Positions 7,448 through 51,040 are shown, counted from the stretch's first letter. The stretch: 64,000 bases of DNA from a bacterium (GCA_030693205.1 JAUYBG010000006.1:4015-68014); one strand, 5' to 3'. A program made the numbers and translations. The notes: generated from the letters alone by a model not told the origin.

Positions 7448-7452
7448 AATAT

Positions 7453-7911
7453 TTAAATTATTTTTATTATTTTATACATATTCATTCCTTTGGGAGTTTT
7501 TACGGCTACTTTATCGCCGATCTTCTTGCCCAAAAAAGCGGCGCCAAGAGGAGATTCATTGGAGATCTTGCCGATAACCGGATTTGATTCATTGCGTCCC
7601 ACAATTGTGAAATTATGGCTTCCAGTGCCATTTTCCGCCTCTATGGTGGAACCGATCTGCACCACTCCGATTTTCTTTGGCTCCTCGATAATTGACGATT
7701 CTTTTAACATTTTTTCTATTTCTCCAACTCTTATTTCAGATTCCGCTTTTGCGTCTTTGGCTGCGGAATACTCGGCATTTTCACTCAAATCTCCAAGCTC
7801 TTTTGCCTCATGAATACGCCGGGCAATTTCTTGTCTTTTGGTGGTTTTTAAATAATCCAGCTCTTCTTTTAATTTCTTGAAGCCTTCTTCGGTTAAATAG
7901 GTTTTCGCCAT
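7453..7911 (-). CDS. greA: Transcription elongation factor GreA.
   Basis: 152 aa. The N-terminal coiled-coil LTEEGFKKLKEELDYLK...GDLSENAEY is characteristic of GreA. Confidence 0.85.
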   Translation of the reverse strand: MAKTYLTEEGFKKLKEELDYLKTTKRQEIARRIHEAKELGDLSENAEYSAAKDAKAESEIRVGEIEKMLKESSIIEEPKKIGVVQIGSTIEAENGTGSHNFTIVGRNESNPVIGKISNESPLGAAFLGKKIGDKVAVKTPKGMNMYKIIKII

Positions 7912-13705: not shown

Positions 13706-14824
13706 TTATAAAAAACTGCTGATTTTTTGCCAAATATGATAAGTTCCAAAATCTTTATATGTCACCAGCGCCATCAATAAGAGCAAAATGGCCATCCCCG
13801 CAAAATGAAACTTTCCTTCCGTTTCGGCGCTGACCCGGCTGCCTTTGATTTTTTCGATCAAGAGAAATAATATTCTTCCGCCGTCAAGAGCCGGAAATGG
13901 CAAGGCGTTGATAATGGCCAAATTTACCGACAAAAGGCCCATAAATTGCAAAACATAAGAAAGACCAAGCTGTGTCGCCTGCCCGACCATAACCGCTATT
14001 CCGACAAGACCGGATAACTGACCTGAAGTTTTTCCCGTCGTAAATAATTCTTTAAGAAGAGTAAACAAGGTAATGATTATGTAAGTTCCGACATCCCAAG
14101 TTTTTTTAATTCCCTGCCAGATGGATTCATACCAATTATACGAGACGATGCTTACCTCGCCCAGCGAAACCCCCACCGCGCCTTGATCCGCTGGAGCATC
14201 TTTCCGCGCCATCGCTTTTAATTCAAGATTATTATCTCCGCGCTTAATATTAAAAATTATGTTTCCCCCAAGATTATCATTGATAAATCCCTGGACTTCC
14301 GCGATATTTTTGGGTTCAACCGTTTTATTGTTCTCTGCGGTTTTCAGCGACAAGATCATGTCTCCCGGATTGATTCCGGCGACTTGTGCCGGCGAGCCGG
14401 CAACTACTTCCATGATCATCACGGATAATCCTTTTACATTATTGGCTGTTCCTGTTTCGTGAATATACGGGAAACCCATATAAGCGACCATGCTAAAAAG
14501 AATAATTGCCAAAAGAATATTGGCTGTTACTCCCGCAGCTAATATCTGAAATCTCTGCCAAATGGTTTTTGAGGCAAAACTTCTGTTGTCATCTTTGCCA
14601 TCGCCGTTTTCACCGACAATATTCACAAAACCCCCGACAGGAATCAAATTTATTGAATATATTGTTTCTCCTTTTTTAACGCCAAAAATCCTCGGCGGAA
14701 AACCAAAGCCAAATTCTTTCACCTTTGCTCCAGCTCTTTTGGCCATGATAAAATGGCCAAGTTCATGAAAGAAAACTAAAATTCCCAAAGTAATTACAAA
14801 AACCAATATAGTTACAATTGTCAT
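13706..14824 (-). CDS. rseP: Site-2 protease / RseP family M50 zinc metalloprotease with a PDZ domain.
   Basis: HELGHFIMAK is an HExxH motif within a TM helix. A PDZ segment and the C-terminal LDGG motif are present. Confidence 0.8.
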   Translation of the reverse strand: MTIVTILVFVITLGILVFFHELGHFIMAKRAGAKVKEFGFGFPPRIFGVKKGETIYSINLIPVGGFVNIVGENGDGKDDNRSFASKTIWQRFQILAAGVTANILLAIILFSMVAYMGFPYIHETGTANNVKGLSVMIMEVVAGSPAQVAGINPGDMILSLKTAENNKTVEPKNIAEVQGFINDNLGGNIIFNIKRGDNNLELKAMARKDAPADQGAVGVSLGEVSIVSYNWYESIWQGIKKTWDVGTYIIITLFTLLKELFTTGKTSGQLSGLVGIAVMVGQATQLGLSYVLQFMGLLSVNLAIINALPFPALDGGRILFLLIEKIKGSRVSAETEGKFHFAGMAILLLLMALVTYKDFGTYHIWQKISSFL

Positions 14825-18730: not shown

Positions 18731-18807
18731 AGATGAATTTATATGATATTATCTTTATTTATAGCATACTTTGGGAATAAAAAAAAGAGGAAATGTCAAT
18801 TTTCCCC

Positions 18808-19209
18808 TTACTCCAAAATTTTCCTGATCTCTTTGCTTGTGTGAGCAATTTTTATTTTTGTCCAGATATTGTATTTTGAGATATTGAAAGCAAGCAATGT
18901 GTCGGGATTTATTTCTCCAATAATTATATCCGAGATTTTTCCTTCAATAATCACACCTTCATGCATCTCATTGATCTGCTCATTGTAGAGAGATATGCTT
19001 ATTGAAAATAATTTTGCGATACGATCCGCTATTGAAAAAATAATTCTGGGTTCTGGCTCAAGTATGCTTTTTGCCTCCGTTGAAACAATCGGCAAGCCAG
19101 TACGATATAGCACTATTACCCACCCCGCTCCCAGGTCTTTTTTAAGCAAGATTATTTTTTCTTGAATTTCTTTGATTCTATCAACCGCTAATTTTTCTCT
19201 ATCTTTCAC
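18808..19209 (-). CDS. Hypothetical protein (possible roadblock/LC7-like fold). It flanks the island's left border.
   Basis: 133-aa ORF with no confidently recognisable motif. Confidence 0.3.
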   Translation of the reverse strand: MKDREKLAVDRIKEIQEKIILLKKDLGAGWVIVLYRTGLPIVSTEAKSILEPEPRIIFSIADRIAKLFSISISLYNEQINEMHEGVIIEGKISDIIIGEINPDTLLAFNISKYNIWTKIKIAHTSKEIRKILE

Positions 19210-19327
19210 TTTTTCACCTTCCTTTAAAGAGCTAAGTCAATATTAAGGTATTTAAAAATTTTGTCAATATATATTAAACTAATTTAAAAAATACAATTTT
19301 TATATACCACTATAATTCTATATAGAA

Positions 19328-19618
19328 TCAGATTCTATTTCCGCCGCCAATTCCGCCAAAACTCCTTCCGGTGTCGACGCAATCGGTTTCGCGCATTTTT
19401 CCATCAGAAGCAATCAATTTCAACTGTCGACAAATTGTCGATGGTTCAAATCCATCTTCTTCTTTAACTCTAATTTTCATTTTAAACCAATAATCATTTG
19501 GATCTACGCTGTCAGTCAATGCCTGAACAACATCTATGACCGAAAACCACCATTCATTATTATAGATTATTTTTCTAATTTTCTTACCTTTAAACAAAGC
19601 AATTTTTACAGTTTCCAT
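19328..19618 (-). pseudogene. BRO-N (phage antirepressor / DinD-like) N-terminal domain fragment. Its 3' end runs through the island's left direct repeat.
   Basis: The BRO-N signature is KIRKIIYNNEWWFSVIDVVQAL. It is only 96 aa, against about 250 aa for typical BRO/DinD proteins. An alternative frame over the repeat reads TPEGVLAEL, paralleling the C-terminus of the ORF at 29115. Confidence 0.55.
19348..19377. repeat. Left copy of the 25-bp perfect (29/30) direct repeat bounding the accessory island.
   Basis: caattccgccaaaactccttccggtGtcg at 19348-19377 versus caattccgccaaaactccttccggtAtcg at 29145-29174. Confidence 0.8.
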
Positions 19619-19635
19619 AATATTTATCTTATCCC

Positions 19636-19703
19636 TTGATTAAATCTTTGGAAAATTTTGCGGCGGGATTTTTAATATGAATTGATTTTTAGGATTTTTT
19701 GAA
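19636..19703. repeat. 68-bp direct repeat, copy A (its mate is at 20531-20598, about 88% identical). It lies upstream of the BRO-N start.
   Basis: ttgattaaatctttggaaaattttgcggcgggatttttaatatgaattgatttttaggattttttgaat versus the copy at 20531. Confidence 0.7.
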
Positions 19704-19729
19704 TTTCGAGAACAGTTCTCGGCAGGATT

Positions 19730-20447
19730 TCATTTTAAAAGCTGAGTTACTAGCGCCACCATCTGATCTTTTTCTTTCGGCTTGCTTTCGGCGATAAGAA
19801 TCGCCAAGGCCGTTAAAGCGTTGTCGTTGATTTTTCTTTCTCCGTTTTCCCGATACAAATAATCGTTTTTATCCAAAAAATAAACAAACATAAAAGAGCC
19901 GATGCGCTTGTTGCCATCGGAAAACGGATGGTCTTTCACGGTTAAATACAAAAGATGCGCCGCTTTTTCTTCGGTGCTGAAAATCAATCGCGCTCTGTAA
20001 TTCTTTGAATTTGCTTTTAGCTTCCAAAAGTCGTTTTTCATTTACAGCATAACCCTTAATCAAATAATCTTTAACTATCTTAGTCGCCCAAATTCTGAAT
20101 TGAGTAGCTCTTTCCGAATTTATGCGATAACCGACGGAAATAATTGCATCAAGATTATAAAACTGGGTTTTATAGATTTTTCCATCGGCGGCAGTATGTT
20201 CCAAAATGGAACTAACTGAATTTTTATTTAGCTCGGCAGTTTTAAAGATATTGCGGAGATGCTTGGTAATTGCCGGCCTTTGCGTGCCAAAAAGCAAAGC
20301 AATTTGAGATTGCGTTAACCAAATAGTTTCATTATCAAGTTTTACTTCAATTTGAATATCGCCGCCTTTGGGCTTATAGATGACAATTCCGCCTCTGTTG
20401 AATTGTTCGAGTTTTTTCTTTTTTAGCATAGTTTTTATGACTCGCAT
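19730..20447 (-). pseudogene. RhuM-family N-terminal domain fused to a Doc/Fic-type toxin domain. The gene is interrupted by a frameshift (ORFs 19869-20447 and 19730-20041 overlap in different frames).
   Basis: The N-terminal part aligns with the full-length RhuM at 28057-29061 (WLTQ..IA.LF...R..I..HL.NI, VGYR..S...TQFR.WAT). The C-terminal ORF carries the Doc-type motif HPFSDGNKRIG. The two frames overlap by about 170 nt. Confidence 0.55.
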
Positions 20448-20530
20448 TATCTTCCGTCTAATCTCTCTTCAATTTAAAATTTAATTCTCGCGAAAGATTC
20501 GCTTGAAAATTATCTCCGGCGATTTTGGGT

Positions 20531-20598
20531 TTGATTAGATCTTTGGAAAATTTTGGGTCCGGATTTTCAATATGAATTGATTTTAAAGATTTTTTAAA
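20531..20598. repeat. 68-bp direct repeat, copy B (mate of 19636-19703). It lies upstream of the RhuM/Doc gene.
   Basis: See copy A. Confidence 0.7.
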
Positions 20599-20660
20599 TC
20601 TTGTAAGCAATTCTCAAAAATATTAAAAAGCGCTTAGTGCCTCATTTCCACTTTATATTA

Positions 20661-23600
20661 TTAAGAAATAATTTTTATAATATCCTTAGTAACTAATTTT
20701 CTATCACGCTTTTCACTAATCCAATCGCTATATTTAACTCTGTAAAATACCCACCCTGCAGCTTCAAGTACACGCTGGCGTTCTTCGTCGCTTTCAATAT
20801 GAATACCGTACGCCTCGTCTATTTCGTCTTTGAAATGAGAAGGGCCATCGCACTCAACCGCAATACGCTTACCCGTATTTGTATTACTCACAACAAAATC
20901 AATCTTGAAACCGCAACTTTCAACTTGATTCTGAATTTTATAGCCGCGTTTTAGATTTGCACGCATAAGATTGAAAAATTCTTCCTCAAAATATGAATCA
21001 AATGGCTTGAGATCGGTTGAATAAAACGCAACTTCTCCATTTTCTTGCACATACTCAAGATATTTCTTGAGCCAGATTTTTTCTGGCATTTCTTGCGTAG
21101 ACAAACTAACGAAACAATGCACCTGTAATCTTGCGCGCGAAAAAGCGACATTAACTCTGCCTTTGTTTATATCGGCGCGTATATCTCCGCCCTCACCAGT
21201 TAGCGGAACATATTTGTTTTTTTGTTCAGGCGTCCTAATAACAAATGAATAAATTACAATATCTTTCTCGTCGCCTTGAATGCCCTCAATAATACTCACC
21301 TTGTAATTGTCGTCTTCTTCCTTAAAACCTTCCTTCTCAAAGAGATTGCGAATATAAGTCGCTTGAGCATTAAAGAAAGATAAAATGCCGATAGATTTAT
21401 CGCGATAGCGTTCGTCATCCCGCAACTCTTTGAATAGGTTTAATATCGCCTTTGCTTCAGCGATATTTACATTATCTGAAAATTCCTCGCTCCAATCTGA
21501 TTTTATTTCATGAACAAGCATTATGCGGTTTGTGTCTTTGTAGGTTAGATAATTACTATTGATTGAAATTAATTCTTTACCTTTAGGTTTATAAAAATAT
21601 TTATTACTAAAGCCAATCAATTCTACCGCAGAACGATAATGGTAATGTAAGGGTTTTTCCATAAAACCACGATTTTTTGCAATATCTAAAACGGACTGAA
21701 CGGCATCGCCTGTCGCTTTGATTTGTTTATCTACTGGTATTTTATATGTATGCGCGAGTTGATCAAAAAACTTATTTGATTTAAACATTATCGTACTATC
21801 GCGCATTTGCTCGCTATCGCCAACAAATAAAACTCTATTTGTGCGATACATAACCGGTAAAGTGTAAGCAACGTTGCATTGCGATGCTTCGTCTAAAATT
21901 ACGTAGTCAAAAATTCCGGCTTCAAGCGGAATAATACGGCTTGCGTCATCAAGTTCCATAATCCAAACGGGAATTAAATCCAAAATTGCATTAAAATTAT
22001 TTACATCTTTTCGGAGATTATCAAACGTCTTAAACGCTTTTTTTGATTTTCCGAAAGCTTTTGCTAACTTGTTAACTATTTGCCTAATTGTTATCCCTTC
22101 TTTCCATTTTTTAAGAATTCCTTCATTGATAATATTCTGGATATAAAGTCCAACGCGCTTAACCCGTTCCTGTTCGGTGTGCTTTAACGCAGAACCTATT
22201 TTATTAATACTGTCTGTTTTTGCCAATTTCTGTAATTCCGATTTAATTTCCTGTGTTCGTAAGATTTTATTTTTAATTTCTTCTAAATTGGCAATTGCGG
22301 TGTTGTCAATTTTTCTATCTAAAATTTCAAACTCATCATCAGAAACTCCGCAAGTACTCAATTTTTGTCGCAATTTTTCCTCGGCATTTTCCAAACATTG
22401 AATATTTTCATAGTAACAACAATGATTATAAAGACAATCGAGCGTTTTTGCTTGTTCATTCCGCGACATACTACTTATCAAAATTTTATCTATGTAATCG
22501 ATAATTTCTCGTGGCAATTTTTTTCGAACATTACCAAGCCGAAAATTGCGACTAACATTGTTAATCTTGCGAAAAAAGTTTGAATGTCGATCGTATCCAG
22601 TTTTCGCAACATCATCTCTTAATTTCCCTATGGCCTCGGCAAAATGTTCGCCATTTAGATTAAGGACAGAAAGAAGATGGTCAAGTTCTTTTTTTTCGTC
22701 GCTTCGCTCATATTTTCTGATAATTTTGCCGATTGTTTCTATCTCTGCTTTTGCATTTTTAATTTCTCGCCATTCGTCAGATGAAAAACTTCTTGCAAAA
22801 CATCCAAAATCAGAAATATCTATATCGTATTCTTTAAGTTGTAATAACTCTTGATGAAGTTGGTATATTTTTCTTTGAATAGTGATAATTTCATTAAGAG
22901 CTTCCCGATTTTTTTCTTTTTCCCCAACAATTTGATCAATTGCCGGAATTGATATGTTTTTTCCACTATATTCTACTAAATGCCTTCTTGCGTTAAATTT
23001 ATAACCAAGTTTTTCAATATGGGAACCGAGTGCACTTAATTGTGGCGCTATTCCATCTGCTTCGTCTTCTTCCCCAATTTGTGCTGAATTTGGATTGGGC
23101 AGATAGCCGAATAAATATTTTACATCAAGCTTTTTGAGTTTATCTTTTACAACTTTGAGAGCTTGCGCTTTTTGACTAACAAAAAGCACGCGATTGCCAG
23201 TAGCGGCAAGATGACAAAGTATATTTGAAATTGTTTCTGACTTACCGGTTCCAGGTGGCCCTTGAATAATCGCCCCTTTATTGCCAAGAATTGAAAGAGT
23301 GGAAAGTTGGTATTTGTCGTAGAGAAATGGAAAATATAAATCTTTTTCATGGGGAGTTTCACCCTCAACGTTTAACTCATCGTTTTGTGTCCAGCTCGTA
23401 AGTGCGGTTTTAGCAAGTTCTTCTTCTGTTAGCTGGGAGAGTTTGGCTAAATCTTCAGCAAGAAAATAATTCGCCTTTGGGCTTAAGGCAATTTTAATTT
23501 CTTCAAGCGAAAAAGATTTTTCATCAAAATTAGCGTTTTTAAGTCGTAATTGGGCTTTTATTTTGTGCCAAATTTCTTTAAAAATTAATAAATCAGTTAT

Positions 23601-24233
23601 GGGCAAAGAAAATTGCCCTTCAATTTCATATTTACCCATTTCTTCCAAAAGCTGAAAATATAAATCCTCGCCAAGTATTGGTTCCAACATTCCTATATTT
23701 ACTTGGACTTCTGGATCAACAAAATAAATAGAGTACTCTTTAGCGCCAGTTTTTTTGTTAAATTCTTGTTCTATTTTTACTGGCAATGAAAAAAGTGGAT
23801 AACGGTCAATTTTAGTTTTAACTGGTTTTTCTTCCACATTTTCCTCTTGTTCTTCTGATGAAATAATATCGCCATTGCTTTCAATGGGAATTTCAATTTC
23901 AAAATACCCAAAACTTAATATGATCTGCTTTGTGTATTGATCATTTTTATATTTGCTATAAATATCGTCTATTTTATTTGCCAGCTCTTTTTCCTTTTCG
24001 TACTCGTCCATTTCATCTTTGGGAACATCCTTTGGATCATATTTGTAAAAAGTTTTTAGATCAATCAATTCTGCGATTTTTTCATCCGTGTCTCCGTTCA
24101 ATAAACCAAGTAATCCAAAAAGTTCTGCTGGTAGAATAACAGAATATTTTTGCTGTGCCAATATCGTATGTGCTCGGGTTAATTTTATATAACCAAGACA
24201 ATACTTAATGAAATTTGAAAGGTTATTGTCCAT
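20661..24233 (-). CDS. SF1 (Upf1/DNA2-like, AAA_11/AAA_12) helicase with an N-terminal DUF4011-like region and a C-terminal DUF559-type PD-(D/E)xK endonuclease domain. Putative defence helicase-nuclease.
   Basis: LYFPF...IIQGPPGTGKSETISNI is a DUF4011-to-Walker-A junction. A long coiled-coil insert follows. Motif II is YVILDEASQ, and helicase C-terminal motifs are present. The last ~110 aa read KIDFVV...KRIAVECDGPSHF...AGW.FYR, the DUF559/Vsr-like nuclease signature. Confidence 0.75.
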   Translation of the reverse strand: MDNNLSNFIKYCLGYIKLTRAHTILAQQKYSVILPAELFGLLGLLNGDTDEKIAELIDLKTFYKYDPKDVPKDEMDEYEKEKELANKIDDIYSKYKNDQYTKQIILSFGYFEIEIPIESNGDIISSEEQEENVEEKPVKTKIDRYPLFSLPVKIEQEFNKKTGAKEYSIYFVDPEVQVNIGMLEPILGEDLYFQLLEEMGKYEIEGQFSLPITDLLIFKEIWHKIKAQLRLKNANFDEKSFSLEEIKIALSPKANYFLAEDLAKLSQLTEEELAKTALTSWTQNDELNVEGETPHEKDLYFPFLYDKYQLSTLSILGNKGAIIQGPPGTGKSETISNILCHLAATGNRVLFVSQKAQALKVVKDKLKKLDVKYLFGYLPNPNSAQIGEEDEADGIAPQLSALGSHIEKLGYKFNARRHLVEYSGKNISIPAIDQIVGEKEKNREALNEIITIQRKIYQLHQELLQLKEYDIDISDFGCFARSFSSDEWREIKNAKAEIETIGKIIRKYERSDEKKELDHLLSVLNLNGEHFAEAIGKLRDDVAKTGYDRHSNFFRKINNVSRNFRLGNVRKKLPREIIDYIDKILISSMSRNEQAKTLDCLYNHCCYYENIQCLENAEEKLRQKLSTCGVSDDEFEILDRKIDNTAIANLEEIKNKILRTQEIKSELQKLAKTDSINKIGSALKHTEQERVKRVGLYIQNIINEGILKKWKEGITIRQIVNKLAKAFGKSKKAFKTFDNLRKDVNNFNAILDLIPVWIMELDDASRIIPLEAGIFDYVILDEASQCNVAYTLPVMYRTNRVLFVGDSEQMRDSTIMFKSNKFFDQLAHTYKIPVDKQIKATGDAVQSVLDIAKNRGFMEKPLHYHYRSAVELIGFSNKYFYKPKGKELISINSNYLTYKDTNRIMLVHEIKSDWSEEFSDNVNIAEAKAILNLFKELRDDERYRDKSIGILSFFNAQATYIRNLFEKEGFKEEDDNYKVSIIEGIQGDEKDIVIYSFVIRTPEQKNKYVPLTGEGGDIRADINKGRVNVAFSRARLQVHCFVSLSTQEMPEKIWLKKYLEYVQENGEVAFYSTDLKPFDSYFEEEFFNLMRANLKRGYKIQNQVESCGFKIDFVVSNTNTGKRIAVECDGPSHFKDEIDEAYGIHIESDEERQRVLEAAGWVFYRVKYSDWISEKRDRKLVTKDIIKIIS

Positions 24234-24344
24234 AATATTACTTCTTTTTCCTTCTTAAGCTTTATTAATCGCAATCTTACCCCAATTTGGGCTTAAAATT
24301 AATGAAAAAACGGCTGAAGAGCAAAGTTACGGATTTTCTCGTAT

Positions 24345-24529
24345 TTTTCCACCAGCGCTTTAATTTTTTCTTTGGCTTGTTGTTGCGTAATTGTTTTCCT
24401 TAAACTAAACTTCTACATTATCTTACCCCAAAACCTCCATAAAATCAAATAAAAAAATCCGGCGAATTTAATATTTCACCGGCTTGTCTTTTGGCAAATA
24501 ATTCATTTCTTGCCTTTTTTCAAAATCTT
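24345..24529. repeat. ~185-bp direct repeat, copy 1 (about 98% identical to 27896-28082). It carries a TTGATT-N17-TAAGAT promoter pointing at the helicase gene, and it also encodes the C-terminus of the ATPase fragment.
   Basis: Alignment of 24345-24529 with 27896-28082 shows only about three mismatches. Confidence 0.85.
24410..24438 (-). promoter_or_regulatory. Sigma70-like promoter (TTGATT-17-TAAGAT) inside repeat copy 1, about 180 nt upstream of the helicase-nuclease ATG.
   Basis: Minus-strand read: TTGATTttatggaggttttggggTAAGAT. The same module sits upstream of the rhuM ATG (29090-29118), and with TATAAT upstream of murC. Confidence 0.5.
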
Positions 24530-24722
24530 GCCTTTGCACTACTTCGTTCATCTGTAAATATCTTTGGGCTGAAATTCTTTTTGTAGGACTATTTACCTGT
24601 TCAAGCTTTGACCCGAATCTGGTTTTACCAGCCCCGTTTGCACCAATAATTACCATATTTTTTTCAATTATTATAGTTTCTTGTTCGCTACTATTAGATT
24701 TTGGAATTTGAATATTTTTCAT
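24468..24722 (-). pseudogene. Truncated N-terminal fragment of an AAA_15/AAA_21-type ATPase (Walker A only).
   Basis: IIGANGAGKTRFGSKLEQ is a P-loop, followed by about 40 aa and then a stop. The last ~20 codons are read from the 185-bp repeat, in a different frame from the RhuM copy. A full ATPase would exceed 350 aa. Confidence 0.55.
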
Positions 24723-24867
24723 ATCTTTTTATTTTCTATAATCTTAATTTCCTCTTCTGTCAACCCATACAGCTCATAAACTTTTTGGTCAATTCTTTTT
24801 AAATTAATATTTTTAATTCGACACTCAATTTTTAAACATAATCTATTTTATACTATCATCCTAAATT

Positions 24868-25626
24868 TTATTTTGACAGTTTAATTAAAATTTTAATAAT
24901 TTCTATAATATCGTGGTTATGCCTCTTAGAACACATGGCAAAAATTTTCATTATGTCAAACAACACATCCGCATTATTTTTGTTTATTATATATTCTAGT
25001 ATATCACTATTTTTCGAAGAATGTCCTATCAAACCGGAATAATTGCTAAATGATTTAATTGGTATGCAAAAATATACCATCGGTTGAACACCCGTTGCAT
25101 ATTGTTGTTTTTGTATAGATACCTCTACTTGCGTATTGTCGGCCGTTTGAATCATAAAAAGAGTTGGCAGTTTTATACTTGTTTCTTCAAAATTCATTCC
25201 ATTAAGAACTATTTTTGAGTTATGTTCAATTGCAATTTTTTTGTCATCTATAAAATCATTATATTTTTTAATTTCCTCCAATAACTTAGTAATTTTTTCA
25301 ATTGATACCAAGCCAACTTGTATTCCATCATAAATAAGTTCGGAAAGTTCATAAAGATATTTTGTTTTGCCGTTAGCGCCGATAAAAGTTAATCGTTTTA
25401 ACCTTGTGTCTTTTTTGCCATTCACAACATCATTTACAACAGCATCGTAGCCGATTTGCCATTCAAGATATACACTCTCGTCAAAATTTCTTGTTCTAGC
25501 GGCAAAAGTATCGCCAAACTGCAAATTATTCTTTCTCGTCTTAAATCTAAATTTTCCAGAATTTGATGCGGGAATTTTTATAATTATTTCCTTATTTTTT
25601 GTAATATAATCCATATATATTTTCAA
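24868..25626 (-). CDS. Hypothetical 252-aa protein (ORF-A). A candidate restriction endonuclease or effector partner of the adjacent methyltransferases.
   Basis: No recognisable motif. It is co-directional with ORF-B with a 4-nt overlap, and divergent from the two MTase genes. Confidence 0.35.
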   Translation of the reverse strand: MKIYMDYITKNKEIIIKIPASNSGKFRFKTRKNNLQFGDTFAARTRNFDESVYLEWQIGYDAVVNDVVNGKKDTRLKRLTFIGANGKTKYLYELSELIYDGIQVGLVSIEKITKLLEEIKKYNDFIDDKKIAIEHNSKIVLNGMNFEETSIKLPTLFMIQTADNTQVEVSIQKQQYATGVQPMVYFCIPIKSFSNYSGLIGHSSKNSDILEYIINKNNADVLFDIMKIFAMCSKRHNHDIIEIIKILIKLSK

Positions 25627-25970
25627 TAATTAATTGCTTTATTTATTATTTTTTTAAATTCTTTTGTAATGTCCTTAACGGAATTGATTTTTATACTATA
25701 ATTTATTCCCGGATATTGCATATAGCTAGCACTAACAAAACCGGGCATGTTCGGTTTATCTTTTAGCGAAAAACCGACATCAAGCTGAATTCCTGATAGT
25801 GTTTTACCTCTATAATATATAACAAAAACCATTTTGTCTTCTATGAAATAGCTAACATAAATTGGAAAAACCCGATAATCTATACTGGGGCTGCTAAACA
25901 TAATAATTTGATGTAATTTATCAAAGACTAGCCATTTGTCGCCCATTTTTTTTCTTAAATCTTCCAACAT
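25623..25970 (-). CDS. Hypothetical 115-aa protein (ORF-B), translationally coupled to ORF-A.
   Basis: ATGA overlap with ORF-A. A TAAGAT -10-like box lies 12 nt upstream of its ATG. No known domain was recognised. Confidence 0.35.
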   Translation of the reverse strand: MLEDLRKKMGDKWLVFDKLHQIIMFSSPSIDYRVFPIYVSYFIEDKMVFVIYYRGKTLSGIQLDVGFSLKDKPNMPGFVSASYMQYPGINYSIKINSVKDITKEFKKIINKAINY

Positions 25971-26035
25971 ATAGTTATTTTATCTTAATCTTGCCTAAAA
26001 ATCTATTAAGCCATTTTCTCAATTGATTTTCTTAA

Positions 26036-26064
26036 TTGATTTTTTGCTTAATATTTGATATTAT
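26036..26064 (+). promoter_or_regulatory. Sigma70-like promoter TTGATT-17-TATTAT for the MTase operon, preceded by an 11-bp direct repeat (caattgatttt x2) that may be an operator.
   Basis: TTGATTttttgcttaatatttgaTATTAT lies 49 nt before the 26113 ATG. The direct repeats are at 26019-26030 and 26032-26043. Confidence 0.45.
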
Positions 26065-26112
26065 AAGTATAGAGCAGATTTTCATATTCTGCAATAATAG
26101 GGTAAAAATTTC

Positions 26113-26751
26113 ATGCAAAGTAATATTTTAAATACAATTCAAAACATTGATTGTTTGGAGGGATTTAAAATAATTCCCGACAGCTCAATTGATCTTATTT
26201 TAACAGACCCGCCCTATGGATTAAATAAAACTGGGATAAAAAATGACCACGACCTAAGTTTATTTTATTTGTCTTTGCCAGAAAGCCATAGAGTATTAAA
26301 AAATGATTCTTTTTATATCACTTTTTTTAGCACAAAATTTTTACCGGATATTTTCAAAAATAATCCTTTTCGGTATTTTTGGAATTTCATTTTATACTGT
26401 CCGAACGGAAGTGTAATGTCACCTATTGGTTTTACTAAATATATGTCCTGCGTTGTTTTTAAAAAAGGTAATCCTAAGTTGATCAAAAGAGGTAAAGATA
26501 TTTTTCTAGACACACCGGGCAGAATGATTGAACCAGATGAAGGATTCATAAACCACCCTACGCCAAAACCCAAAACATTCATAAAAGAATTACTAATGCT
26601 TTTTTCAAAAGAAAATGACATTATCCTTGATCCGTTTATTGGAAGCGGAAGTACGGCAGTCGCTTGTAAACAATTGAAAAGAAATTATATAGGTTTTGAA
26701 ATTAGCAATGATTATTGCAACTTAGCAAACGAGAGATTAAAAAAATTTTGA
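26113..26751 (+). CDS. DNA N6-adenine / N4-cytosine methyltransferase, beta-class (motif IV precedes motif I).
   Basis: DLILTDPPYG (motif IV, DPPY) appears near the N-terminus. LDPFIGSGSTAVAC (motif I, FxGxG) appears near the C-terminus. 212 aa. Confidence 0.8.
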   Translation: MQSNILNTIQNIDCLEGFKIIPDSSIDLILTDPPYGLNKTGIKNDHDLSLFYLSLPESHRVLKNDSFYITFFSTKFLPDIFKNNPFRYFWNFILYCPNGSVMSPIGFTKYMSCVVFKKGNPKLIKRGKDIFLDTPGRMIEPDEGFINHPTPKPKTFIKELLMLFSKENDIILDPFIGSGSTAVACKQLKRNYIGFEISNDYCNLANERLKKF

Positions 26752-26752
26752 T

Positions 26753-27883
26753 ATGAATAATAAACAAGAAATTTTAGGCCAATATTTTACCAAAATTGAA
26801 ATTGTCAGAAATTTGGTAGATTTAGTTTTATCAAACAAACATTATAAAAATAGCATTAAAATACTTGAACCTTCTTTCGGAACCGGAAATTTTATCAAAG
26901 CACTAAAAGAGAAGAATCTTTCCAATATTGAAGGCTGTGAAATTGACGAAGAGTTAACCAAAAATCCGTCAGATTTTTTTAATATGCCTTTTGAGAAAAA
27001 ATACGACTTAATCATCGGCAATCCGCCTTTTAGTAAATATAATTTAAAAGAAAGCTACTTTAATATAAACAAACATCTTAAATTTAACGCATTAGCTTCT
27101 GTTTATTTAACAAAAAATGAGCTAAGAAAAGATAAAGAAAAAATTGAGAACATTTTTTTGCTCAAAAGCTTAAAACATTTACAAGATAATAATTCATCTA
27201 TTGGTTTTGTCTTACCCATCTCATTTTTTATAAAAAATAGAAATAAATCCATAAAAAATGAATTATTAAAATATTTTTCTACCATTATCATTTATCAAAA
27301 CGATAAGGTTTGGTTCGATAAAAATATTCCCTGTTGTTTTGCTGTTTTTACCAATTCCGACAAACTAAAAAATAAAATTGTTTTAATATATGAAAATGGT
27401 AAAAAAAATAAAGAAGTATTTAGCATAAATAATATCCATGAAGAATTAATTCCCCAAGTTGTTTATCATAAAAACAATGGGTATATAAAAAATGACATAG
27501 GAACGCCTTTGTCGGAATTTTTTGAAACAAAAAAGATAAATATAAAAAAATCATACGAGGAAAATAATATTTCGGCAAAAAATATTCTTGAAAAAAATAT
27601 AATTCCAGAAAATAAACTCACTGAAAATTATAAAATTGCTGTCGTGAGAGTCGGAAATTCCAGTGTCGGAAAGTGTGGTTTGATAAACGAAAAAGAAGAT
27701 ATTTTAAATGATATGTTTTATATCTTTGATGTAAAAAATCAATATATTAAAAATAAACAAATAAAAGAAAATATCTGTCGTCAAATAAATAAAAATATTG
27801 ATTATTTTAGAAATATAACTTGCCGAGTTGGGAGTAAATCAATTAAAAAAGAGGATATTTATAATTTTAAAGTTAGCATTTAA
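26753..27883 (+). CDS. DNA N6-adenine methyltransferase, gamma-class (TaqI-like) with a C-terminal target-recognition region.
   Basis: QYFT near the N-terminus, ILEPSFGTGNF (motif I) and IIGNPPF (motif IV, NPPF) in gamma order. It starts 2 nt after the upstream MTase stop. Confidence 0.75.
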   Translation: MNNKQEILGQYFTKIEIVRNLVDLVLSNKHYKNSIKILEPSFGTGNFIKALKEKNLSNIEGCEIDEELTKNPSDFFNMPFEKKYDLIIGNPPFSKYNLKESYFNINKHLKFNALASVYLTKNELRKDKEKIENIFLLKSLKHLQDNNSSIGFVLPISFFIKNRNKSIKNELLKYFSTIIIYQNDKVWFDKNIPCCFAVFTNSDKLKNKIVLIYENGKKNKEVFSINNIHEELIPQVVYHKNNGYIKNDIGTPLSEFFETKKINIKKSYEENNISAKNILEKNIIPENKLTENYKIAVVRVGNSSVGKCGLINEKEDILNDMFYIFDVKNQYIKNKQIKENICRQINKNIDYFRNITCRVGSKSIKKEDIYNFKVSI

Positions 27884-27895
27884 AGCAACAATGCC

Positions 27896-28082
27896 CTTTT
27901 TCCACCAGCGCTTTAATTTTTTCTTTGGCTTGTTCTTGCATAATTGTTTTCCTTAAACTAAACTTCTACATTATCTTACCCCAAAACCTCCATAAAATCA
28001 AATAAAAAAAATCCGGCGAATTTAATATTTCACCGGCTTGTCTTTTGGCAAATAATTCATTTCTTGCCTTTTTTCAAAATCT
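27896..28082. repeat. ~185-bp direct repeat, copy 2. It overlaps the last 8 codons and 3' flank of rhuM, and contains a promoter module plus the start of a short ORF (MQEQAKEKIKALVEK...).
   Basis: See copy 1. Confidence 0.85.
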
Positions 28083-29061
28083 TTTTCACTTCCCTGTCAA
28101 AATCGGAAATATAATTTTTATCCCGCTCTTGACGATATTTTTCATATTCTTGCAAAGCTTTATCTTCCGCCTGTTTCGCGCTCACTGTGCCAGCCGAATG
28201 CAATAACTTTTTCTCTGAAATAGTCAAAAATTCATCCAATTTTGTAATCCAATCCCGCATTTTCATCAATCGACCAGAAGCGGCCTGCAATTCCGCAAAA
28301 TCAATATAGAGCGAAACGATCAGATTTAATTGATTTATTTCCGATTCGGTCAAATAATTTTTCGCAACGACAATATCGTCAGTGGTAATATAATTTCTTT
28401 TAAAACTTGTAAGCCCCATCAAAGGTTTTTTACTATCGACTCGCTGAGTGATAATTTCTGCTGCCGTATGTCCATGCACGGCAAAATGCATTTTATTTTG
28501 CACGGTAGCGAAAAATTTTTGCGTCAATTCGGCATCAATCTTATAATCGATGCTTGTCGCATAAATATCAGTCACTTTCTGATAAAACATCCGCTCACTA
28601 CTACGAATATCCCGCACGCGCTGCAATAACTCTTGAAAATAACGCGCCCTGCCACCTGCCTGTTTGAGCCGTTCGTCATCTATTGTAAAACCCTTAATTA
28701 AATATTCCCGCAATCTTTCTGTCGCCCATTGGCGAAACTGCGTTCCCTGTTCAGACCGTACACGATAGCCAACCGCCAAAATAACATCAAGATTATAATG
28801 TTTAACATCACGCGCAACTTCTCGCAAAGCTTCTTTCTGAACTATCCGGAAATTCCGGATAGTTGAATTTTCATCCAGTTCTCGTTCTAAATAAATATTT
28901 GCTAAATGTTCATTAACAGTGCGTATATCGACATTAAAAAGTTCCGCAATTAGTTTTTGCGTCAACCAAACATTTTCATCTTCAATTCTAACGCGAATTT
29001 TTTGCTCATCGCCAAAGGTTTGATAAATAACAATTTGCGGTTTTTTAATTTCCTTTTTCAT
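28057..29061 (-). CDS. rhuM: RhuM-family (virulence protein RhuM / Fic-Doc-associated) protein, full length.
   Basis: 334 aa. The N-terminal half is a paralogue of the 19869-20447 ORF. The conserved VGYRV.S..GTQFR.WAT region is present. Confidence 0.7.
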   Translation of the reverse strand: MKKEIKKPQIVIYQTFGDEQKIRVRIEDENVWLTQKLIAELFNVDIRTVNEHLANIYLERELDENSTIRNFRIVQKEALREVARDVKHYNLDVILAVGYRVRSEQGTQFRQWATERLREYLIKGFTIDDERLKQAGGRARYFQELLQRVRDIRSSERMFYQKVTDIYATSIDYKIDAELTQKFFATVQNKMHFAVHGHTAAEIITQRVDSKKPLMGLTSFKRNYITTDDIVVAKNYLTESEINQLNLIVSLYIDFAELQAASGRLMKMRDWITKLDEFLTISEKKLLHSAGTVSAKQAEDKALQEYEKYRQERDKNYISDFDREVKKILKKGKK

Positions 29062-29089
29062 AAAATTTTCTTAAACTAAACTCTATCTA

Positions 29090-29118
29090 ATCTTACCCCA
29101 AAACTCGCTTAAAATCAA
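29090..29118 (-). promoter_or_regulatory. Sigma70-like promoter TTGATT-17-TAAGAT, about 29 nt upstream of the rhuM ATG.
   Basis: Minus-strand read: TTGATTttaagcgagttttggggTAAGATtagatagagtttagtttaagaaaattttATG. Confidence 0.55.
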
Positions 29119-29519
29119 ACGAAATTAACATCGCCATCTTCCTGCAATTCCGCCAAAACTCCTTCCGGTATCGGAACCGCCTCTCGCAGTTTGGAAATTC
29201 CCGGATAACGCCAAGCGGTAATTACGACTCGCCTTTCATTGCTAACTCCATCTTGAGTTATTTTTTTATCCTGATACATCACCCAAATCTCCTGCGGATT
29301 TTTCTTGGAACCGGATTTTTTCATCACGGCAACAGTATCCGGCGCGATACCCTGTTCTTCGCGATCATGGCGCGACAAAACACTCTTTACTTTTGCGGCG
29401 GACAAGCCATAAAACATCATTTTTCTCGCAATATGACGCGTCCAAGCCAGATAGCGAGTGTTTTTAGGCATTTTAAACCCCCACACTTTTGTGTTTGCCG
29501 CGTTTATTTTATTCGCCAT
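29115..29519 (-). CDS. Hypothetical 134-aa protein. Its last 8 codons form the island's right direct repeat.
   Basis: ORF with no recognised domain. The C-terminus ...IPEGVLAELQEDG is encoded by the repeat caattccgccaaaactccttccggt. Confidence 0.4.
   Translation of the reverse strand: MANKINAANTKVWGFKMPKNTRYLAWTRHIARKMMFYGLSAAKVKSVLSRHDREEQGIAPDTVAVMKKSGSKKNPQEIWVMYQDKKITQDGVSNERRVVITAWRYPGISKLREAVPIPEGVLAELQEDGDVNFV
29145..29174. repeat. Right copy of the island-bounding direct repeat. It is also the 3' end of the ORF at 29115-29519.
   Basis: See the left copy. Confidence 0.8.
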
Positions 29520-29590
29520 AATATTTCAAACTTAATCCCTTATTTTCTCCGACACTTTGTACGATAAGTGTGGGGGTAAATTGCATGAAA

Positions 29591-30688
29591 TTATTCTATC
29601 AATATTTTTAACGTCTCCCTCGCGCATTTTTCCCAAGAAAATCTTTTGGTATTTTCGTAGCCGGCTTGAATAAGATCCTGACGCAATGCTTCGTCGCTTA
29701 GCACTTTTTCCAGAGCCATCGTAATTTCCCTAGAATTTTTCGGATCGACAAAAACCGCGCCCGCGCCCGCAACTTCCGGCAAGCAAGAAGTATTAGATGT
29801 GATAACCGGAACTCCAGCCGCTTGCGCTTCCAGCACCGGCAAACCAAATCCTTCATAAAACGACGGGAAAAGAAAAACCGAGGAATTTTTCAACAAATCA
29901 TTCTTTTCGCTTTCCGTCACATATCCTTTCAAAACAATATCCTTTTTAAATGCTGAGGCGTTTATTGCGCTGGCGATTTTTTCGAAACCAAAACCCGTCC
30001 CGCCGACCAAAATCAGTTTATTTGAAAATTGCAAATTTTTTTGCCTAAATTTATTATACGCTTCGATAATTCCCAAAATATTTTTCTTCATTTCGATCCG
30101 CCCGATATATACAATAGAACCCCTTTTATTATTTTCTGGATCTTGACTCATAATTTTTGGCTCCTGCCCTATCCCATGATAAACTACACTAATTTTTTGT
30201 ACATTTCCGCCATATAATTTCATTAGATCTTTCTTAGTATTCTCTGAAACCGCAATAATTCTCGCGGCAGTTTTGAGTGCGTATTTCGTTGACCATCGCA
30301 AATACAGACGATGCCAAAAAGGATAAAGCTCCGGAAAATATTCATATTCCAGCCCGTGAAGCGCGACAACTGATCTTTTCGGATGGATCAGGGGCAAAAT
30401 ATGCACCGGGATAAACAAAACATCAATCTTGGAATTCAACATCTCCCAGGCCAGTCTTATTTGCGTCCAGCCAAAAGGAAAAGACAAAAATTTAAGCTCA
30501 AAATTTTCCGGCAACGTTTGCAGTTCTTTTAAACGCCCGGACCTAAGCCGCGGATTCAGATATAAAATAAAGCGATGAGCCCGAGATTCCGGGATCACCG
30601 CCAAATGTTTAATAAGTTGAAAAACATATTCTTCCACTCCGGTGGGATTTTCTTTTAAAGCCGCGGAAGTATTAATGCCGATGATCAT
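29591..30688 (-). CDS. Glycosyltransferase family 4 (GT-B).
   Basis: EGFGLPVLEAQAAGVPVITS (E-x7-E) motif. 365 aa. Confidence 0.75.
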   Translation of the reverse strand: MIIGINTSAALKENPTGVEEYVFQLIKHLAVIPESRAHRFILYLNPRLRSGRLKELQTLPENFELKFLSFPFGWTQIRLAWEMLNSKIDVLFIPVHILPLIHPKRSVVALHGLEYEYFPELYPFWHRLYLRWSTKYALKTAARIIAVSENTKKDLMKLYGGNVQKISVVYHGIGQEPKIMSQDPENNKRGSIVYIGRIEMKKNILGIIEAYNKFRQKNLQFSNKLILVGGTGFGFEKIASAINASAFKKDIVLKGYVTESEKNDLLKNSSVFLFPSFYEGFGLPVLEAQAAGVPVITSNTSCLPEVAGAGAVFVDPKNSREITMALEKVLSDEALRQDLIQAGYENTKRFSWEKCARETLKILIE

Positions 30689-30691
30689 AAT

Positions 30692-31693
30692 TTACGATTT
30701 TATACTCCGTTTATAGGCATCCAGATTATCAAGCGCCACCCCTGTTCCTTTTGCCACGCAAAGCAACGGCTCTTCCGCGACACAGCAAGATACGCCCGTA
30801 ACGGTAGAAATTAAAATATCCAAGTTTTTCAACAATGCCCCGCCTCCCGACAATACCATGCCTTTGTCTATTATATCCGCCGCCAGTTCCGGAGGAGTAT
30901 CGGAAAGAACCAGTTTTATAACCTTGATGATCTCTCTTAATTCGTCGGAAATTGCTTCGGTTACTTCATTGGAATTAATTGCAATTGTTTTCGGAAGACC
31001 GCTGATCAGATCTCTTCCCTTAACTTCAAACTCGATGGGTTCTTTAACAGGAATGGCACTGCCGATCGTTATTTTAATTTCTTCGGCCGTTTGTTCGCCA
31101 ATCGCCAAATTATGTTTTTTCTTGACATAATCAGCAATAGACTGATCCAGTTTGTCTCCGCCGATTCTTACTGACGATGACGAAACAATGCCTCCCAGCG
31201 ATATCACGGCTACCTGGCTTGTGCCCCCGCCAATATCAATGATCATATTGCCGGAAGGAGTATTAATCGGTATTCCCGCGCCAATGGCCGCCAAAATCGG
31301 CTGTTTGACGATATAAGCGGCTTTTGCGCCCGCATTCATCGCCGCATCGATAACCGCGCGCCTTTCGGTGGAAGTAATTCCTGCCGGCACTCCCACCATT
31401 ACTTCCGGACGAAAAAACTGAATACGGCCGCAAGTCTTATTGATAAAATATCGGAGCATAGCTTCAATAATCCGATAATCAGCTATAACGCCATCTTTCA
31501 TGGGACGCGAAGCGATTATGGTTTCTGGGGTCTTTCCCAACATTTCCTTTGCTTTGCTTCCAACCGCCAAGATCTTATTATCATCTAAAGAAACCGCCAC
31601 TACTGTCGGTTCGTTTATCACAATGCCTTTTCTGGGAACAAAAACCAAAGTATTGGCCGTACCCAGATCAATGCCAATTTTTTTAATAAACAT
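30692..31693 (-). CDS. mreB: Second MreB-like actin-family ATPase (paralogue). The start was chosen at the internal Met that aligns with MreB N-termini; the ORF-track start at 31816 adds 41 poorly conserved residues.
   Basis: MFIKKIGIDLGTANTLVFV... followed by the full set of MreB motifs. It is a clear paralogue of the 11278-12330 gene but not identical. Confidence 0.8.
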   Translation of the reverse strand: MFIKKIGIDLGTANTLVFVPRKGIVINEPTVVAVSLDDNKILAVGSKAKEMLGKTPETIIASRPMKDGVIADYRIIEAMLRYFINKTCGRIQFFRPEVMVGVPAGITSTERRAVIDAAMNAGAKAAYIVKQPILAAIGAGIPINTPSGNMIIDIGGGTSQVAVISLGGIVSSSSVRIGGDKLDQSIADYVKKKHNLAIGEQTAEEIKITIGSAIPVKEPIEFEVKGRDLISGLPKTIAINSNEVTEAISDELREIIKVIKLVLSDTPPELAADIIDKGMVLSGGGALLKNLDILISTVTGVSCCVAEEPLLCVAKGTGVALDNLDAYKRSIKS

Positions 31694-31825
31694 AAATTTA
31701 CTTACAAAAACTTTCTTACTTTCTTTTAAAATCATAGCAGTAATCAAAAAGCAAGTCAACCTTAAAAGACTTTCAAAATAACTGAAATATGTTATAATGG
31801 CATAAACTGAACTCATTTAAAGTTT

Positions 31826-31902
31826 TGTCATGCTGAACTTGTTTCAGCATCTAAGGTAAGCTAAAAATTAGTAATAGATTCCGAAACAAGTTCGGGATGA
31901 CA
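31826..31902. repeat. Composite inverted repeat. The 28-bp arms tgtcatgctgaacttgtttcagcatcta and tagattccgaaacaagttcgggatgaca flank a 21-bp centre. Each arm carries an internal hairpin with an AAACAAGTT core.
   Basis: The arms are reverse complements at 23 of 28 positions. An equivalent arm pair occurs at 58071-58178. It sits in the divergent mreB2 / membrane-protein intergenic region. Confidence 0.7.
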
Positions 31903-32024
31903 CAAATGGCATATTTTGGCTTAAAATAATATTTATTGGGAAAAACTTAAAATAACTTAACTCATACTAACTAATATTGCCTGCCAGTATTTAAATAACC
32001 GCCAGTATGCTAAAATAATTTTCT

Positions 32025-50979: not shown

Positions 50980-51008
50980 ATTATACCCCAAAACAAGTTT
51001 AAAATCAA
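50980..51008 (-). promoter_or_regulatory. Near-consensus sigma70 promoter TTGATT-17-TATAAT for murC.
   Basis: Minus-strand read: TTGATTttaaacttgttttggggTATAAT, about 60 nt upstream of the murC ATG. The spacer ends in the same TTTTGGGG seen in the island promoters. Confidence 0.55.
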
Positions 51009-51011
51009 AAT

Positions 51012-51040
51012 AAAAAGAGCCGGCTTACAGCGCTCTTTTT
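51012..51040 (-). terminator. Hairpin terminator after murG.
   Basis: Minus-strand aaaaagagc-gctgtaagccg-gctcttttt, i.e. a stem plus a U-tract. Confidence 0.45.

Follow-up and report, generated by a model that had tools for sequence, protein, structure and literature searches.

A PabI-family restriction-modification unit between 186-bp direct repeats in a patescibacterial defence island, probably inserted with duplication of its target

A predicted PabI-family restriction-modification (RM) unit lies between two nearly identical direct repeats in the defence island of an uncultured, reduced-genome bacterium of the Patescibacteria (CPR), and we consider it probable (roughly 0.6) that a composite segment bearing this unit was inserted with duplication of a 186-bp target, an event of the 'long target duplication' kind. 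The rearrangement is of an ordinary, well-documented defence-gene kind and not promoter-guided cassette swapping, and it reveals no new mechanism and no new system. Its value is as a base-level record of defence-island remodelling, in which an RM unit from a clade-wide housekeeping locus appears to have jumped into a graveyard of other defence genes. The locus adds a CPR example to RM mobility, which has been described mainly in Helicobacter, Haemophilus and related genera, and it suggests that direct repeats in defence islands need not signal homologous cassette exchange. The features are given below in coordinates of the window (the whole 64,000-nt stretch of DNA that was analysed).

20661–24233, minus strand: SF1 helicase-nuclease, 1190 aa (AAA_11/AAA_12 plus MTES_1575 nuclease; PDC-S37/ProA/Hhe-like)
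24234–24310, minus strand: helicase-nuclease promoter-like element (TTAATT…TTGGGGTAAGAT, 24274–24310) and 5'UTR
24299–24343, minus strand: native continuation of the type IIG stub, codons 16–21 (YEKIRN), then degenerate sequence and a stop
24344–24529, minus strand: repeat copy 1, content as copy 2 (terminator 24459–24482; promoter-like element 24420–24448; stub start ACG 24386–24388)
24518–24529: joint J1, 12-nt microhomology AAGATTTTGAAA (minus strand), common to the ATPase gene and the rhuM 3' end
24530–24722, minus strand: first 64 codons of an AAA_21/DUF4435 ATPase, with Walker A (PADLOC AriA/PtuA/GajA N-terminal matches)
24719–24820, minus strand: 3'-terminal fragment of a type IIG RM gene, ending …IDQKVYELYGLTEEEIKIIENKKI and a stop that overlaps the ATPase start (ATGA)
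24825–27896 (about), both strands: PabI-family RM unit
24868–25614, minus strand: R.PabI-like REase (Pfam RE_R_Pab1, 6.6e-23; PF09522, 81.5 bits vs cutoff 25)
25623–25970, minus strand: ORF115
26113–26751, plus strand: N6_N4 MTase (N6_N4_Mtase, 9.5e-30)
26753–27883, plus strand: 376-aa MTase-like ORF, ORF376 (PADLOC MTase_II, 1.4e-20)
27897–28083, minus strand: repeat copy 2, with rhuM 3' end, terminator hairpin (28013–28036), promoter-like TTGATT-N17-TAAGAT (27973–28001), 5'UTR and stub start
27897–27941, minus strand: ATG and 15 codons of the type IIG stub ("G"), in copy 2
28057–29061, minus strand: rhuM, 334 aa, intact (Pfam Virulence_RhuM, 1.9e-111; PADLOC PDC-S05)
29062–29126, minus strand: rhuM promoter-like element and 5'UTR (26/30 positions of the module core)

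The two repeat copies (186 and 187 nt) are 98.4% identical: they carry different bases at 24382 (G vs C) and 24387 (G vs A), and an A-run is one base longer in one of them (A7 vs A8); the initial annotation had recognised the repeat, with coordinates off by one base. Both copies carry a terminator-like hairpin, CCGGTGAAATATTAAATTCGCCGG, followed by a T-run, and both carry TTGATT-N17-TAAGAT, with the last eight rhuM codons and stop (28057–28083) lying inside copy 2. A short ORF beginning MQEQAKEKIKALVEK starts with ATG in copy 2 and, as had been reported, with ACG in copy 1. Of the module's contents as first described, the last rhuM codons, the promoter-like element and the ORF start are all there, whereas the ORF is no independent gene and is better read as the stub of a type IIG gene. 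The description of a recent-looking duplication within a defence island also holds; the island (18732–29153) is absent from the closest relative (L004). The rest of the 64-kb window contains no further full copy of the repeat, and pattern scans of genome and metagenome collections turned up no additional one.

The insert between the copies spans 3,367 bp and consists of an intact PabI-family RM unit, which the initial annotation missed, and a 295-bp scrap made of a type IIG 3' end and an ATPase 5' end. Homologues of both the R and the M genes lie within the repeat-flanked segment; the MTase genes adjoin the REase gene and are divergently transcribed, and the same four-gene layout is seen in L084 and L086. 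The unit has a conserved home in relatives: it sits between gyrB and a ygjP-like gene in 8/8 contigs from related genomes (L084–L093, drawn from at least five MAGs and several read sets), at 85–88% nucleotide identity, while core genes compared with the same MAG are mostly 82–89% identical (73% for GT4/ORF134). Homology of the unit to these relatives ends at 27888–27895, which is the repeat border. At the other end it stops at 24825–24857, where the relatives have the ygjP-like gene, and on this ground we rejected a joint transfer of ATPase fragment and RM unit out of the gyrB/ygjP site. GC content is 27% in the RM unit, 30% in the scrap and 40% in the core. These comparisons suggest that the unit came here from a different place on the chromosome; with the genome's own gyrB/ygjP locus lying outside the window, the gain of a second copy would fit equally well.

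Comparison with relatives also identifies the short ORF in the repeat as what is left of the 5' end of a type IIG RM gene, roughly 900 aa when complete and here decayed. In L111 a type IIG 5' stub and 3' end are fused in one ORF, at 96% and 80% nucleotide identity (the latter between 24735–24799 and the 3' half of the fused stub), and P0247, a 60-aa fused stub, matches proteins of 876–1071 aa, mostly about 900–950 aa, at both the N- and the C-terminus. Among six of these proteins that were scanned, Eco57I and HSDR_N were found in all six and TaqI_C in five, and the C-terminal motif of the 3' fragment recurs in HSDR_N+Eco57I+TaqI_C proteins of 900–950 aa. The view that the short ORF and the '…LYGLTEEEIKIIE' fragment are unrelated was dropped when a chimeric query showed them to be both ends of one type IIG family. 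The window lacks the type IIG nuclease and methylase domains, and the gene is therefore not functional.

As judged from these alignments, the outer junctions of the duplication are native and the inner ones novel. The rhuM C-terminus, DFDREVKKILKKGKK, agrees with that of homologues, so the junction between rhuM and the repeat is native. On the helicase side, contigs from relatives (L107–L110, L111 and L112) match copy 1 past the repeat border to 24330–24339, at 94–96% nucleotide identity, and match copy 2 no further than 27897; stub codons 16–21 after copy 1 agree with P0263, P0291 and P0247 as well, which makes the outer junction of copy 1 native too. In L112 the G stub is present once; a homologous promoter-like element and the orthologous helicase come next, and neither an RM nor an ATPase gene intervenes (72–96% nucleotide identity to the window; 81% for the helicase-nuclease 5' end against L112 7336–7501). 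Since L112 shares it, the stub-promoter-helicase order probably came before the duplication. None of the relatives offered a true empty site, L004 lacking the whole island and L112 lacking the rhuM/terminator/promoter part of the repeat. RhuM homologues were useless as a route to one because the family shows about 88% identity throughout a large number of unrelated genomes, with the exact protein seen in this sample only; the Fic protein of L112 is no RhuM homologue.

The inner junction at copy 1 cuts through the ATPase gene. The initial annotation had called a truncated P-loop ATPase with its C-terminus read from copy 1 in a different frame, and the alignments bear this out: the gene ends exactly at the repeat border, and its 84-codon ORF (24468–24722) takes its last 20 codons from copy 1, one base off the rhuM frame. 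The fragment is 83% identical at the nucleotide level to full-length genes of 500–503 aa in L094 and L095. The start of such full-length homologues overlaps, by the same ATGA, a specificity-bearing RM gene that precedes them; in L095 rhuM is also found upstream. By blastn, ATPase homology extends 12 nt into the repeat. When the joint in the window is aligned together with the ATPase genes of L094 and L095 and with the 3' end of rhuM, it falls inside the 12-nt microhomology, which argues for an illegitimate joint and against homologous exchange between modules.

The promoter-like elements form a diverged family. TTGATT-N17-TAAGAT scores under threshold in a generic sigma-70 scan, and sigma-70 promoter-like matches in the region are not enriched over shuffles, so it is by conservation alone that the element is read as a promoter. 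The element upstream of rhuM, first described as a third partial copy of the module, does exist, although the match is far poorer (84% over 55 nt, 29066–29119); because the same family is found upstream of the helicase (24274–24310), of radC in L004 (27/30) and of Fic in L112, it is a diverged member that stands outside the recent duplication. Nor is the suggestion supported that the module promoter now drives the helicase-nuclease: the stub-promoter-helicase order is found in L112 too, and some 40 nt before its ATG the helicase-nuclease gene has a promoter-like element of its own, homologous to the one between stub and helicase in L112. The exact module promoter pattern, TTTGATTTTAWGNNNGTTTTGGGGTAAGAT, returned nothing in the genome-contig and metagenome-contig collections.

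An independent k=31 assembly from SRR13727537 bears on the concern that the duplication might be an assembly artefact. It breaks exactly 30 nt inside each repeat border into three contigs (rhuM side, insert and helicase side), and with contig ends inside the repeat, all four junctions are present in the reads; the linkage across the 186-bp repeat is that given by the original assembler. No second RM context and no full-length ATPase allele is visible in this assembly.

We propose that the resident order before the event would have been rhuM, module, type IIG stub, promoter and helicase-nuclease, the type IIG gene having already decayed. One end of the incoming segment would have been joined by illegitimate recombination in the 12-nt microhomology, bringing ATPase codons ~64–68 to rhuM codons ~326–329, and on the opposite side stub codon 15 would have been joined to the RM unit's 3' flank. 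As the two joints are staggered, the target between them would come to lie on both sides of the insert. The donor was probably a related allele or strain with the RM unit inside a full type IIG-ATPase operon; the presence of a type IIG 3' end in the insert and a type IIG 5' stub in the target hints at such a shared history and not at unrelated DNA. Physically, the segment may have entered through a homologous crossover paired with an illegitimate one, or a fragment may have circularised and then integrated by a single crossover. The redundant copy-1 stub would have lost its start codon afterwards, in the order of events that we infer.

An in-situ tandem duplication, which we initially favoured, now seems unlikely. 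An ancestral array of rhuM, module, full type IIG gene and ATPase would have doubled, by way of the 12-nt microhomology, a unit of about 3 kb that began at rhuM codon ~326 and ended at ATPase codon ~64; the PabI unit would later have replaced the type IIG body in the upstream copy, and the downstream copy would have been truncated and joined to the helicase. Given the rhuM…ATPase order in L095, the joint between the ATPase 5' part and the rhuM 3' end does resemble the novel joint of a tandem duplication, and the RM unit falls exactly between the type IIG 5' stub (codon 15) and 3' end that are fused in L111. However, the stub-helicase joint would have to postdate the duplication, whereas the arrangement shared with L112 looks older than the nearly identical copies, and it was this that led us to downgrade the idea; four separate events would be required, against two or three for insertion with target duplication. 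Very improbable, in our judgement, is the model of the initial annotation, in which promoter or 3'-end modules recombine homologously and swap cassettes, one exchange having removed the bulk of the ATPase gene. In its favour, four related promoter-like elements (TTGGGGTAAGAT cores) lie within 5 kb of the island, with only one near-match elsewhere in the 64 kb; in relatives, promoters of this type precede genes of a defence kind; and the type IIG 5' stub turns up in several settings at 94–96% nucleotide identity. Yet the ATPase gene has no module and is joined through microhomology, the border on the opposite side is just where the relocated RM unit stops, and uninterrupted identity between the diverged promoters reaches no more than about 15 nt, less than efficient RecA-type exchange needs. 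Of that proposal, the move of a defence unit into the site is supported, but the mechanism is not.

It is decidedly unlikely that a mis-linked assembly or a population mixture joins two molecules here, a chromosome with a single module (rhuM-module-helicase) and a separate 3.55-kb circular or tandem module-RM molecule. The three-contig k=31 graph fits either path, and homologous excision at the 186-bp direct repeat would yield exactly these two products, but the copies differ at three positions that the deposited contig resolves consistently; both inner joints are in the reads on either path, so the module duplication and the rearrangement are real regardless. That the module and RM segment form a minimal mobile RM element of 3.55 kb, looping out as a circle via the repeats, we regard as quite improbable. 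Such an element could re-enter any genome with the conserved promoter and type IIG stub, a sequence seen at 94–96% identity in no fewer than four contexts of this clade. In Patescibacteria, stub and promoter would then offer defence cassettes a 'landing pad' that needs no integrase. Site-specific integration by an integrase (attL/attR) was rejected: the island ORFs gave no integrase, transposase or recombinase match in Pfam, NCBIfam or PADLOC, the window gave no tRNA or Rfam match, and the borders are a microhomology joint and the end of an RM unit.

Microhomology-mediated illegitimate recombination in bacteria includes homology-facilitated illegitimate recombination and tandem-duplication joints. 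The novel joint likewise falls within a 12-nt identity of otherwise unrelated genes, and the other side of our favoured insertion may have been anchored by true homology; the difference is that anchor and joint are staggered in the 'wrong' order, so that the anchor region was duplicated instead of replaced. RM gene insertion with long target duplication was reportedly described by Nobusato et al. in 2000. As in such insertions, the R and M genes lie in a short segment (<20 kb), the direct repeats (>30 bp) far exceed transposon target duplications, no integrase or transposase is present, the insert is lower in GC and the outer junctions are native. Counting against a clean fit, 295 bp of non-RM DNA, part of another defence operon, separates the RM unit from copy 1; the insert is therefore composite, only one repeat adjoins the RM unit, and the locus departs somewhat from the classical picture. 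The present case differs further in having no empty-site genome, a demonstrable microhomology joint at one border and a CPR host. There is published precedent for RM units with direct repeats of more than 30 bp on either side (Furuta, Abe & Kobayashi 2010, PMC2853133).

PabI-family units (Kojima & Kobayashi 2015, PMC4615327) show long-term inheritance at one locus, yet also insert elsewhere or replace other RM genes. The present unit resembles those described there in the tight linkage of an R.PabI homologue to methyltransferase gene(s), in the retention of one orthologous locus with occasional insertion elsewhere, replacement of another RM gene included, and in the decayed copies in relatives. 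The family would be expected to show GTAC-specific DNA glycosylase activity and GTAC methylation, of which the sole indirect hint is that GTAC is moderately under-represented, with 44 occurrences observed vs 65 expected. The unit differs from those described in having two MTase-type ORFs and a 115-aa ORF, and in having moved within one CPR clade to a place beside or within the remains of a type IIG gene, where a duplication of 186 bp flanks the insert; a search by term in that paper found no comparable flanking duplication.

The 10.4-kb island at 18732-29153 is missing from L004, the MAG JAHILZ01, as alignment of the two sequences reveals, and its borders are thereby defined; the source organism is a Patescibacteria (CPR) bacterium, and its MreB shares 95% identity with the MreB of this MAG. 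The island is flanked by a conserved 134-aa ORF on one side and a GT4 glycosyltransferase gene on the other. The spacing between these two genes is about 150 nt in L004, the closest relative.

Island elements in minus-strand order
28057-29061, minus strand: rhuM
27897-28083: repeat copy 2
24825-27895: restriction-modification (RM) unit of four genes (plus strand: ORF376, 212-aa N6_N4 methyltransferase; minus strand: ORF115, R.PabI-family enzyme)
after the RM unit: 84-codon P-loop ORF
24344-24529: repeat copy 1
after copy 1: SF1 helicase-nuclease, 1190 aa, PDC-S37/ProA/Hhe-like
after the helicase-nuclease, to the end of the island order: frameshifted rhuM/Fic-like gene and small ORFs

The two repeat copies are 186 and 187 nt long in the window sequence and 98.4% identical, differing by two substitutions (24382 and 24387) and one A7/A8 indel; the rest of the 64-kb window holds no further match to the full module. 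The start codon of the short ORF within the module is ATG in copy 2, whereas copy 1 has ACG at this place. On rechecking coordinates and content, we found that the initial annotation had described the repeat correctly, to within one base.

Content of each repeat copy, all on the minus strand
first part: rhuM 3' end, last 8 codons and stop
after the rhuM stop: terminator-like hairpin, then a T-run
after the hairpin: TTGATT-N17-TAAGAT element
after that element: 5'UTR
last part: first 15 codons of the short ORF

Homologues of the flanking genes indicate which of the four junctions are original. The rhuM C-terminus encoded in copy 2 (DFDREVKKILKKGKK) agrees with RhuM homologues, so the junction between rhuM and copy 2 is original. 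Beyond copy 1, the short ORF reads YEKIRN…, a continuation shared with the small ORFs P0263 (…KALVEKYEKIRDSG), P0291 (…KALVEKYEKIKSSGKMKSYTES) and P0247, and loci L107-L112 of related genomes match copy 1 at 94-96% nucleotide identity past the repeat border to 24330-24339, whereas their match to copy 2 stops at 27897; the junction between copy 1 and its downstream sequence is thus original as well. Judged by these comparisons, the novel junctions are the two inner ones of the repeat-flanked segment.

Most of that segment is the RM unit, which is 85-88% identical to a four-gene counterpart located between gyrB and a ygjP-like gene in all of L084-L093 (eight contigs in total, taken from read-set assemblies and from at least five MAGs of related organisms). 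Core-genome comparison with the same MAG gives mostly 82-89% (73% for GT4/ORF134), so the identity of the unit is near the core-gene level; the unit is long established in the clade, and its position in the window genome is new. Its GC content is 27% versus 40% for the core. The homology ends no more than 8 nt from the repeat border, at 27888-27895, and on the other side leaves out 24530-24824, a scrap that is not part of the gyrB/ygjP-like-gene unit. This scrap combines the 3' end of a type IIG gene with 64 codons from the start of an AAA_21/DUF4435 ATPase gene. Full-length relatives of the ATPase have 500-503 aa and are 83% identical in nucleotide sequence; each comes after a specificity-bearing RM gene and overlaps it in an ATGA, as in the window, and at one locus, L095, rhuM lies upstream.

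A chimeric query, joining the short ORF to the reading frame that ends directly before the ATPase start (…IDQKVYELYGLTEEEIKIIENKKI*), retrieved P0247, a 60-aa ORF in which both pieces are fused. Searched against 1.8 billion representative proteins, P0247 matched many proteins of 876-1071 aa, mostly about 900-950 aa, in two stretches: their extreme N-terminus and extreme C-terminus. Six of these large matches were scanned for domains and, by domain content, are type IIG RM enzymes, with an HSDR_N nuclease domain and Eco57I/N6_Mtase in 6/6 and TaqI_C in 5/6. It follows from the two-end match that the module holds a 5' stub left by a decayed type IIG gene, and that the 100 nt preceding the ATPase start represent the 3' end of a gene of this kind. 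The roughly 50-nt stub (…GCCAAAGAAAAAATTAAAGCGCTGGTGGAAAAATACGA…) is present, with 94-96% identity, in four or more genomic contexts (L107-L110, where it follows a Mur ligase gene; L111; L112; and window 24330-24390 and 27897-27945), at every site as a short remnant ORF. Its conservation exceeds that of the neighbouring helicase (81%).

The initial annotation had proposed homologous recombination between promoter modules, a mechanism that the data do not support. In an alignment of the window joint, the ATPase genes of L094 and L095 and the 3' end of rhuM, the sequence is …CAAAGGCAAGATTTTGAAAC… for the ATPase gene and …GTGAAAAAGATTTTGAAAAAAGG… for rhuM, and the crossover falls inside the 12-mer AAGATTTTGAAA (24518-24529) common to both. 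By its sequence this joint is illegitimate and microhomology-mediated rather than a product of exchange between homologous modules, which also accounts for the different frame in which the ORF of the truncated ATPase passes through the module. The 30-nt module core is matched at 26/30 by the rhuM promoter and at 27/30 by an element upstream of radC in L004; for the Fic-gene promoter of L112 the comparison was with the rhuM promoter, not the module, and gave 27/30. The supposed third copy upstream of rhuM is therefore a lineage-wide promoter type and not the product of the recent event, and its stretch of uninterrupted identity, at most 15 nt, is too short for efficient homologous exchange. Four occurrences of the core TTGGGGTAAGAT lie in the island; the rest of the window has a single one, with one mismatch.

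The order of genes in L112, a contig of a related MAG, argues against an in-situ tandem duplication with the helicase joining later. There, a single type IIG stub (96% nucleotide identity) is followed by a homologous promoter-like element, with the common motif …AAATTGGGrTAAGATT, and then by the orthologous helicase gene (81%), with neither RM unit nor ATPase fragment between stub and helicase, so the stub-promoter-helicase order probably predates the duplication. The assembly itself was compared with an independently made one of SRR13727537 (Logan, k=31), in which three contigs, 28054-31849 on the rhuM side, 24500-27926 for the insert and 20195-24373 on the helicase side, end exactly 30 nt inside the repeat borders; all four junctions are therefore present in the reads. 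The k=31 graph is compatible both with the integrated path and with a single-module chromosome accompanied by a 3.55-kb circle, and no other RM-unit context or full-length ATPase allele is visible in it.

The window data are consistent with insertion of a composite segment, in which the RM unit is joined to a scrap from a type IIG-ATPase operon, into a resident order of rhuM, module, stub and helicase. The two joints would be staggered by 186 bp, duplicating the target. This arrangement could have arisen through two crossovers, one homologous and the other illegitimate, with a related allele whose type IIG gene carried the RM unit as an interruption; alternatively, a fragment of such an allele, circularised through the 12-nt microhomology, could have integrated by a single crossover in the module. 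Operationally, the locus resembles the pattern that Furuta et al. named insertion with long target duplication (PMC2853133), and PMC4615327 describes PabI-family units as persisting at orthologous loci and also inserting into or replacing other RM genes. The rearrangement is genuine and well resolved, but of a known kind.

Among the counterparts of the RM unit, the 212-aa N6_N4 methyltransferase gene is deleted in L085, L090, L091 and L092, over the equivalent of window 26175-26735, and the R.PabI gene is intact (248 aa) in L090-L092 and truncated to 167-176 aa in L085-L089. Together, these states suggest decay of the unit in several lineages and a role for ORF376 as its cognate methylase, of the M.PabI type. 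The recognition site of the PabI family, GTAC, occurs moderately less often in the window than expected (44 observed versus 65 expected, ratio 0.68); the most avoided 4-nt palindrome is GGCC (0.55), and GATC is over-represented (1.29).

Several further features were observed. The second rhuM/Fic-like gene (19730-20447), downstream of the helicase, combines a RhuM N-terminal part (192-aa ORF) with a Fic C-terminal part (103-aa ORF) and is 70% identical in nucleotide sequence to rhuM of L095. Positions 1-128 and 7336-7513 of the 7.5-kb L112 contig are its two ends and match the flanks of the window's helicase gene at 20477-20591 and 24078-24243; either the body of the helicase was apparently left out of that assembly, or the region is repeated there. 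Downstream of the GT4 gene, L004 carries an island-type promoter and a radC-like gene (14025-14711) where the window, at about 17533, has a DNA polymerase III delta'-like gene. In L094, radC and the -10 core TTGGGGTAAGAT, lacking the -35 half, stand at the head of a type I RM operon whose last gene is the DUF4435 ATPase. This seems to be a second variable spot. A 41-nt stretch at 50984-51024 has 78% similarity to the promoter and T-run portion of the module and may be a further promoter of the module type. Window genes lie nearly all on the minus strand, with steadily negative GC skew, and an Rfam scan of the whole 64 kb returned no family, tRNAs included, at gathering score. Between mreB and a divergent ORF at 32025 lies an imperfect inverted repeat (31823-31905) with 31-nt arms that are 84% complementary and 21 nt apart.
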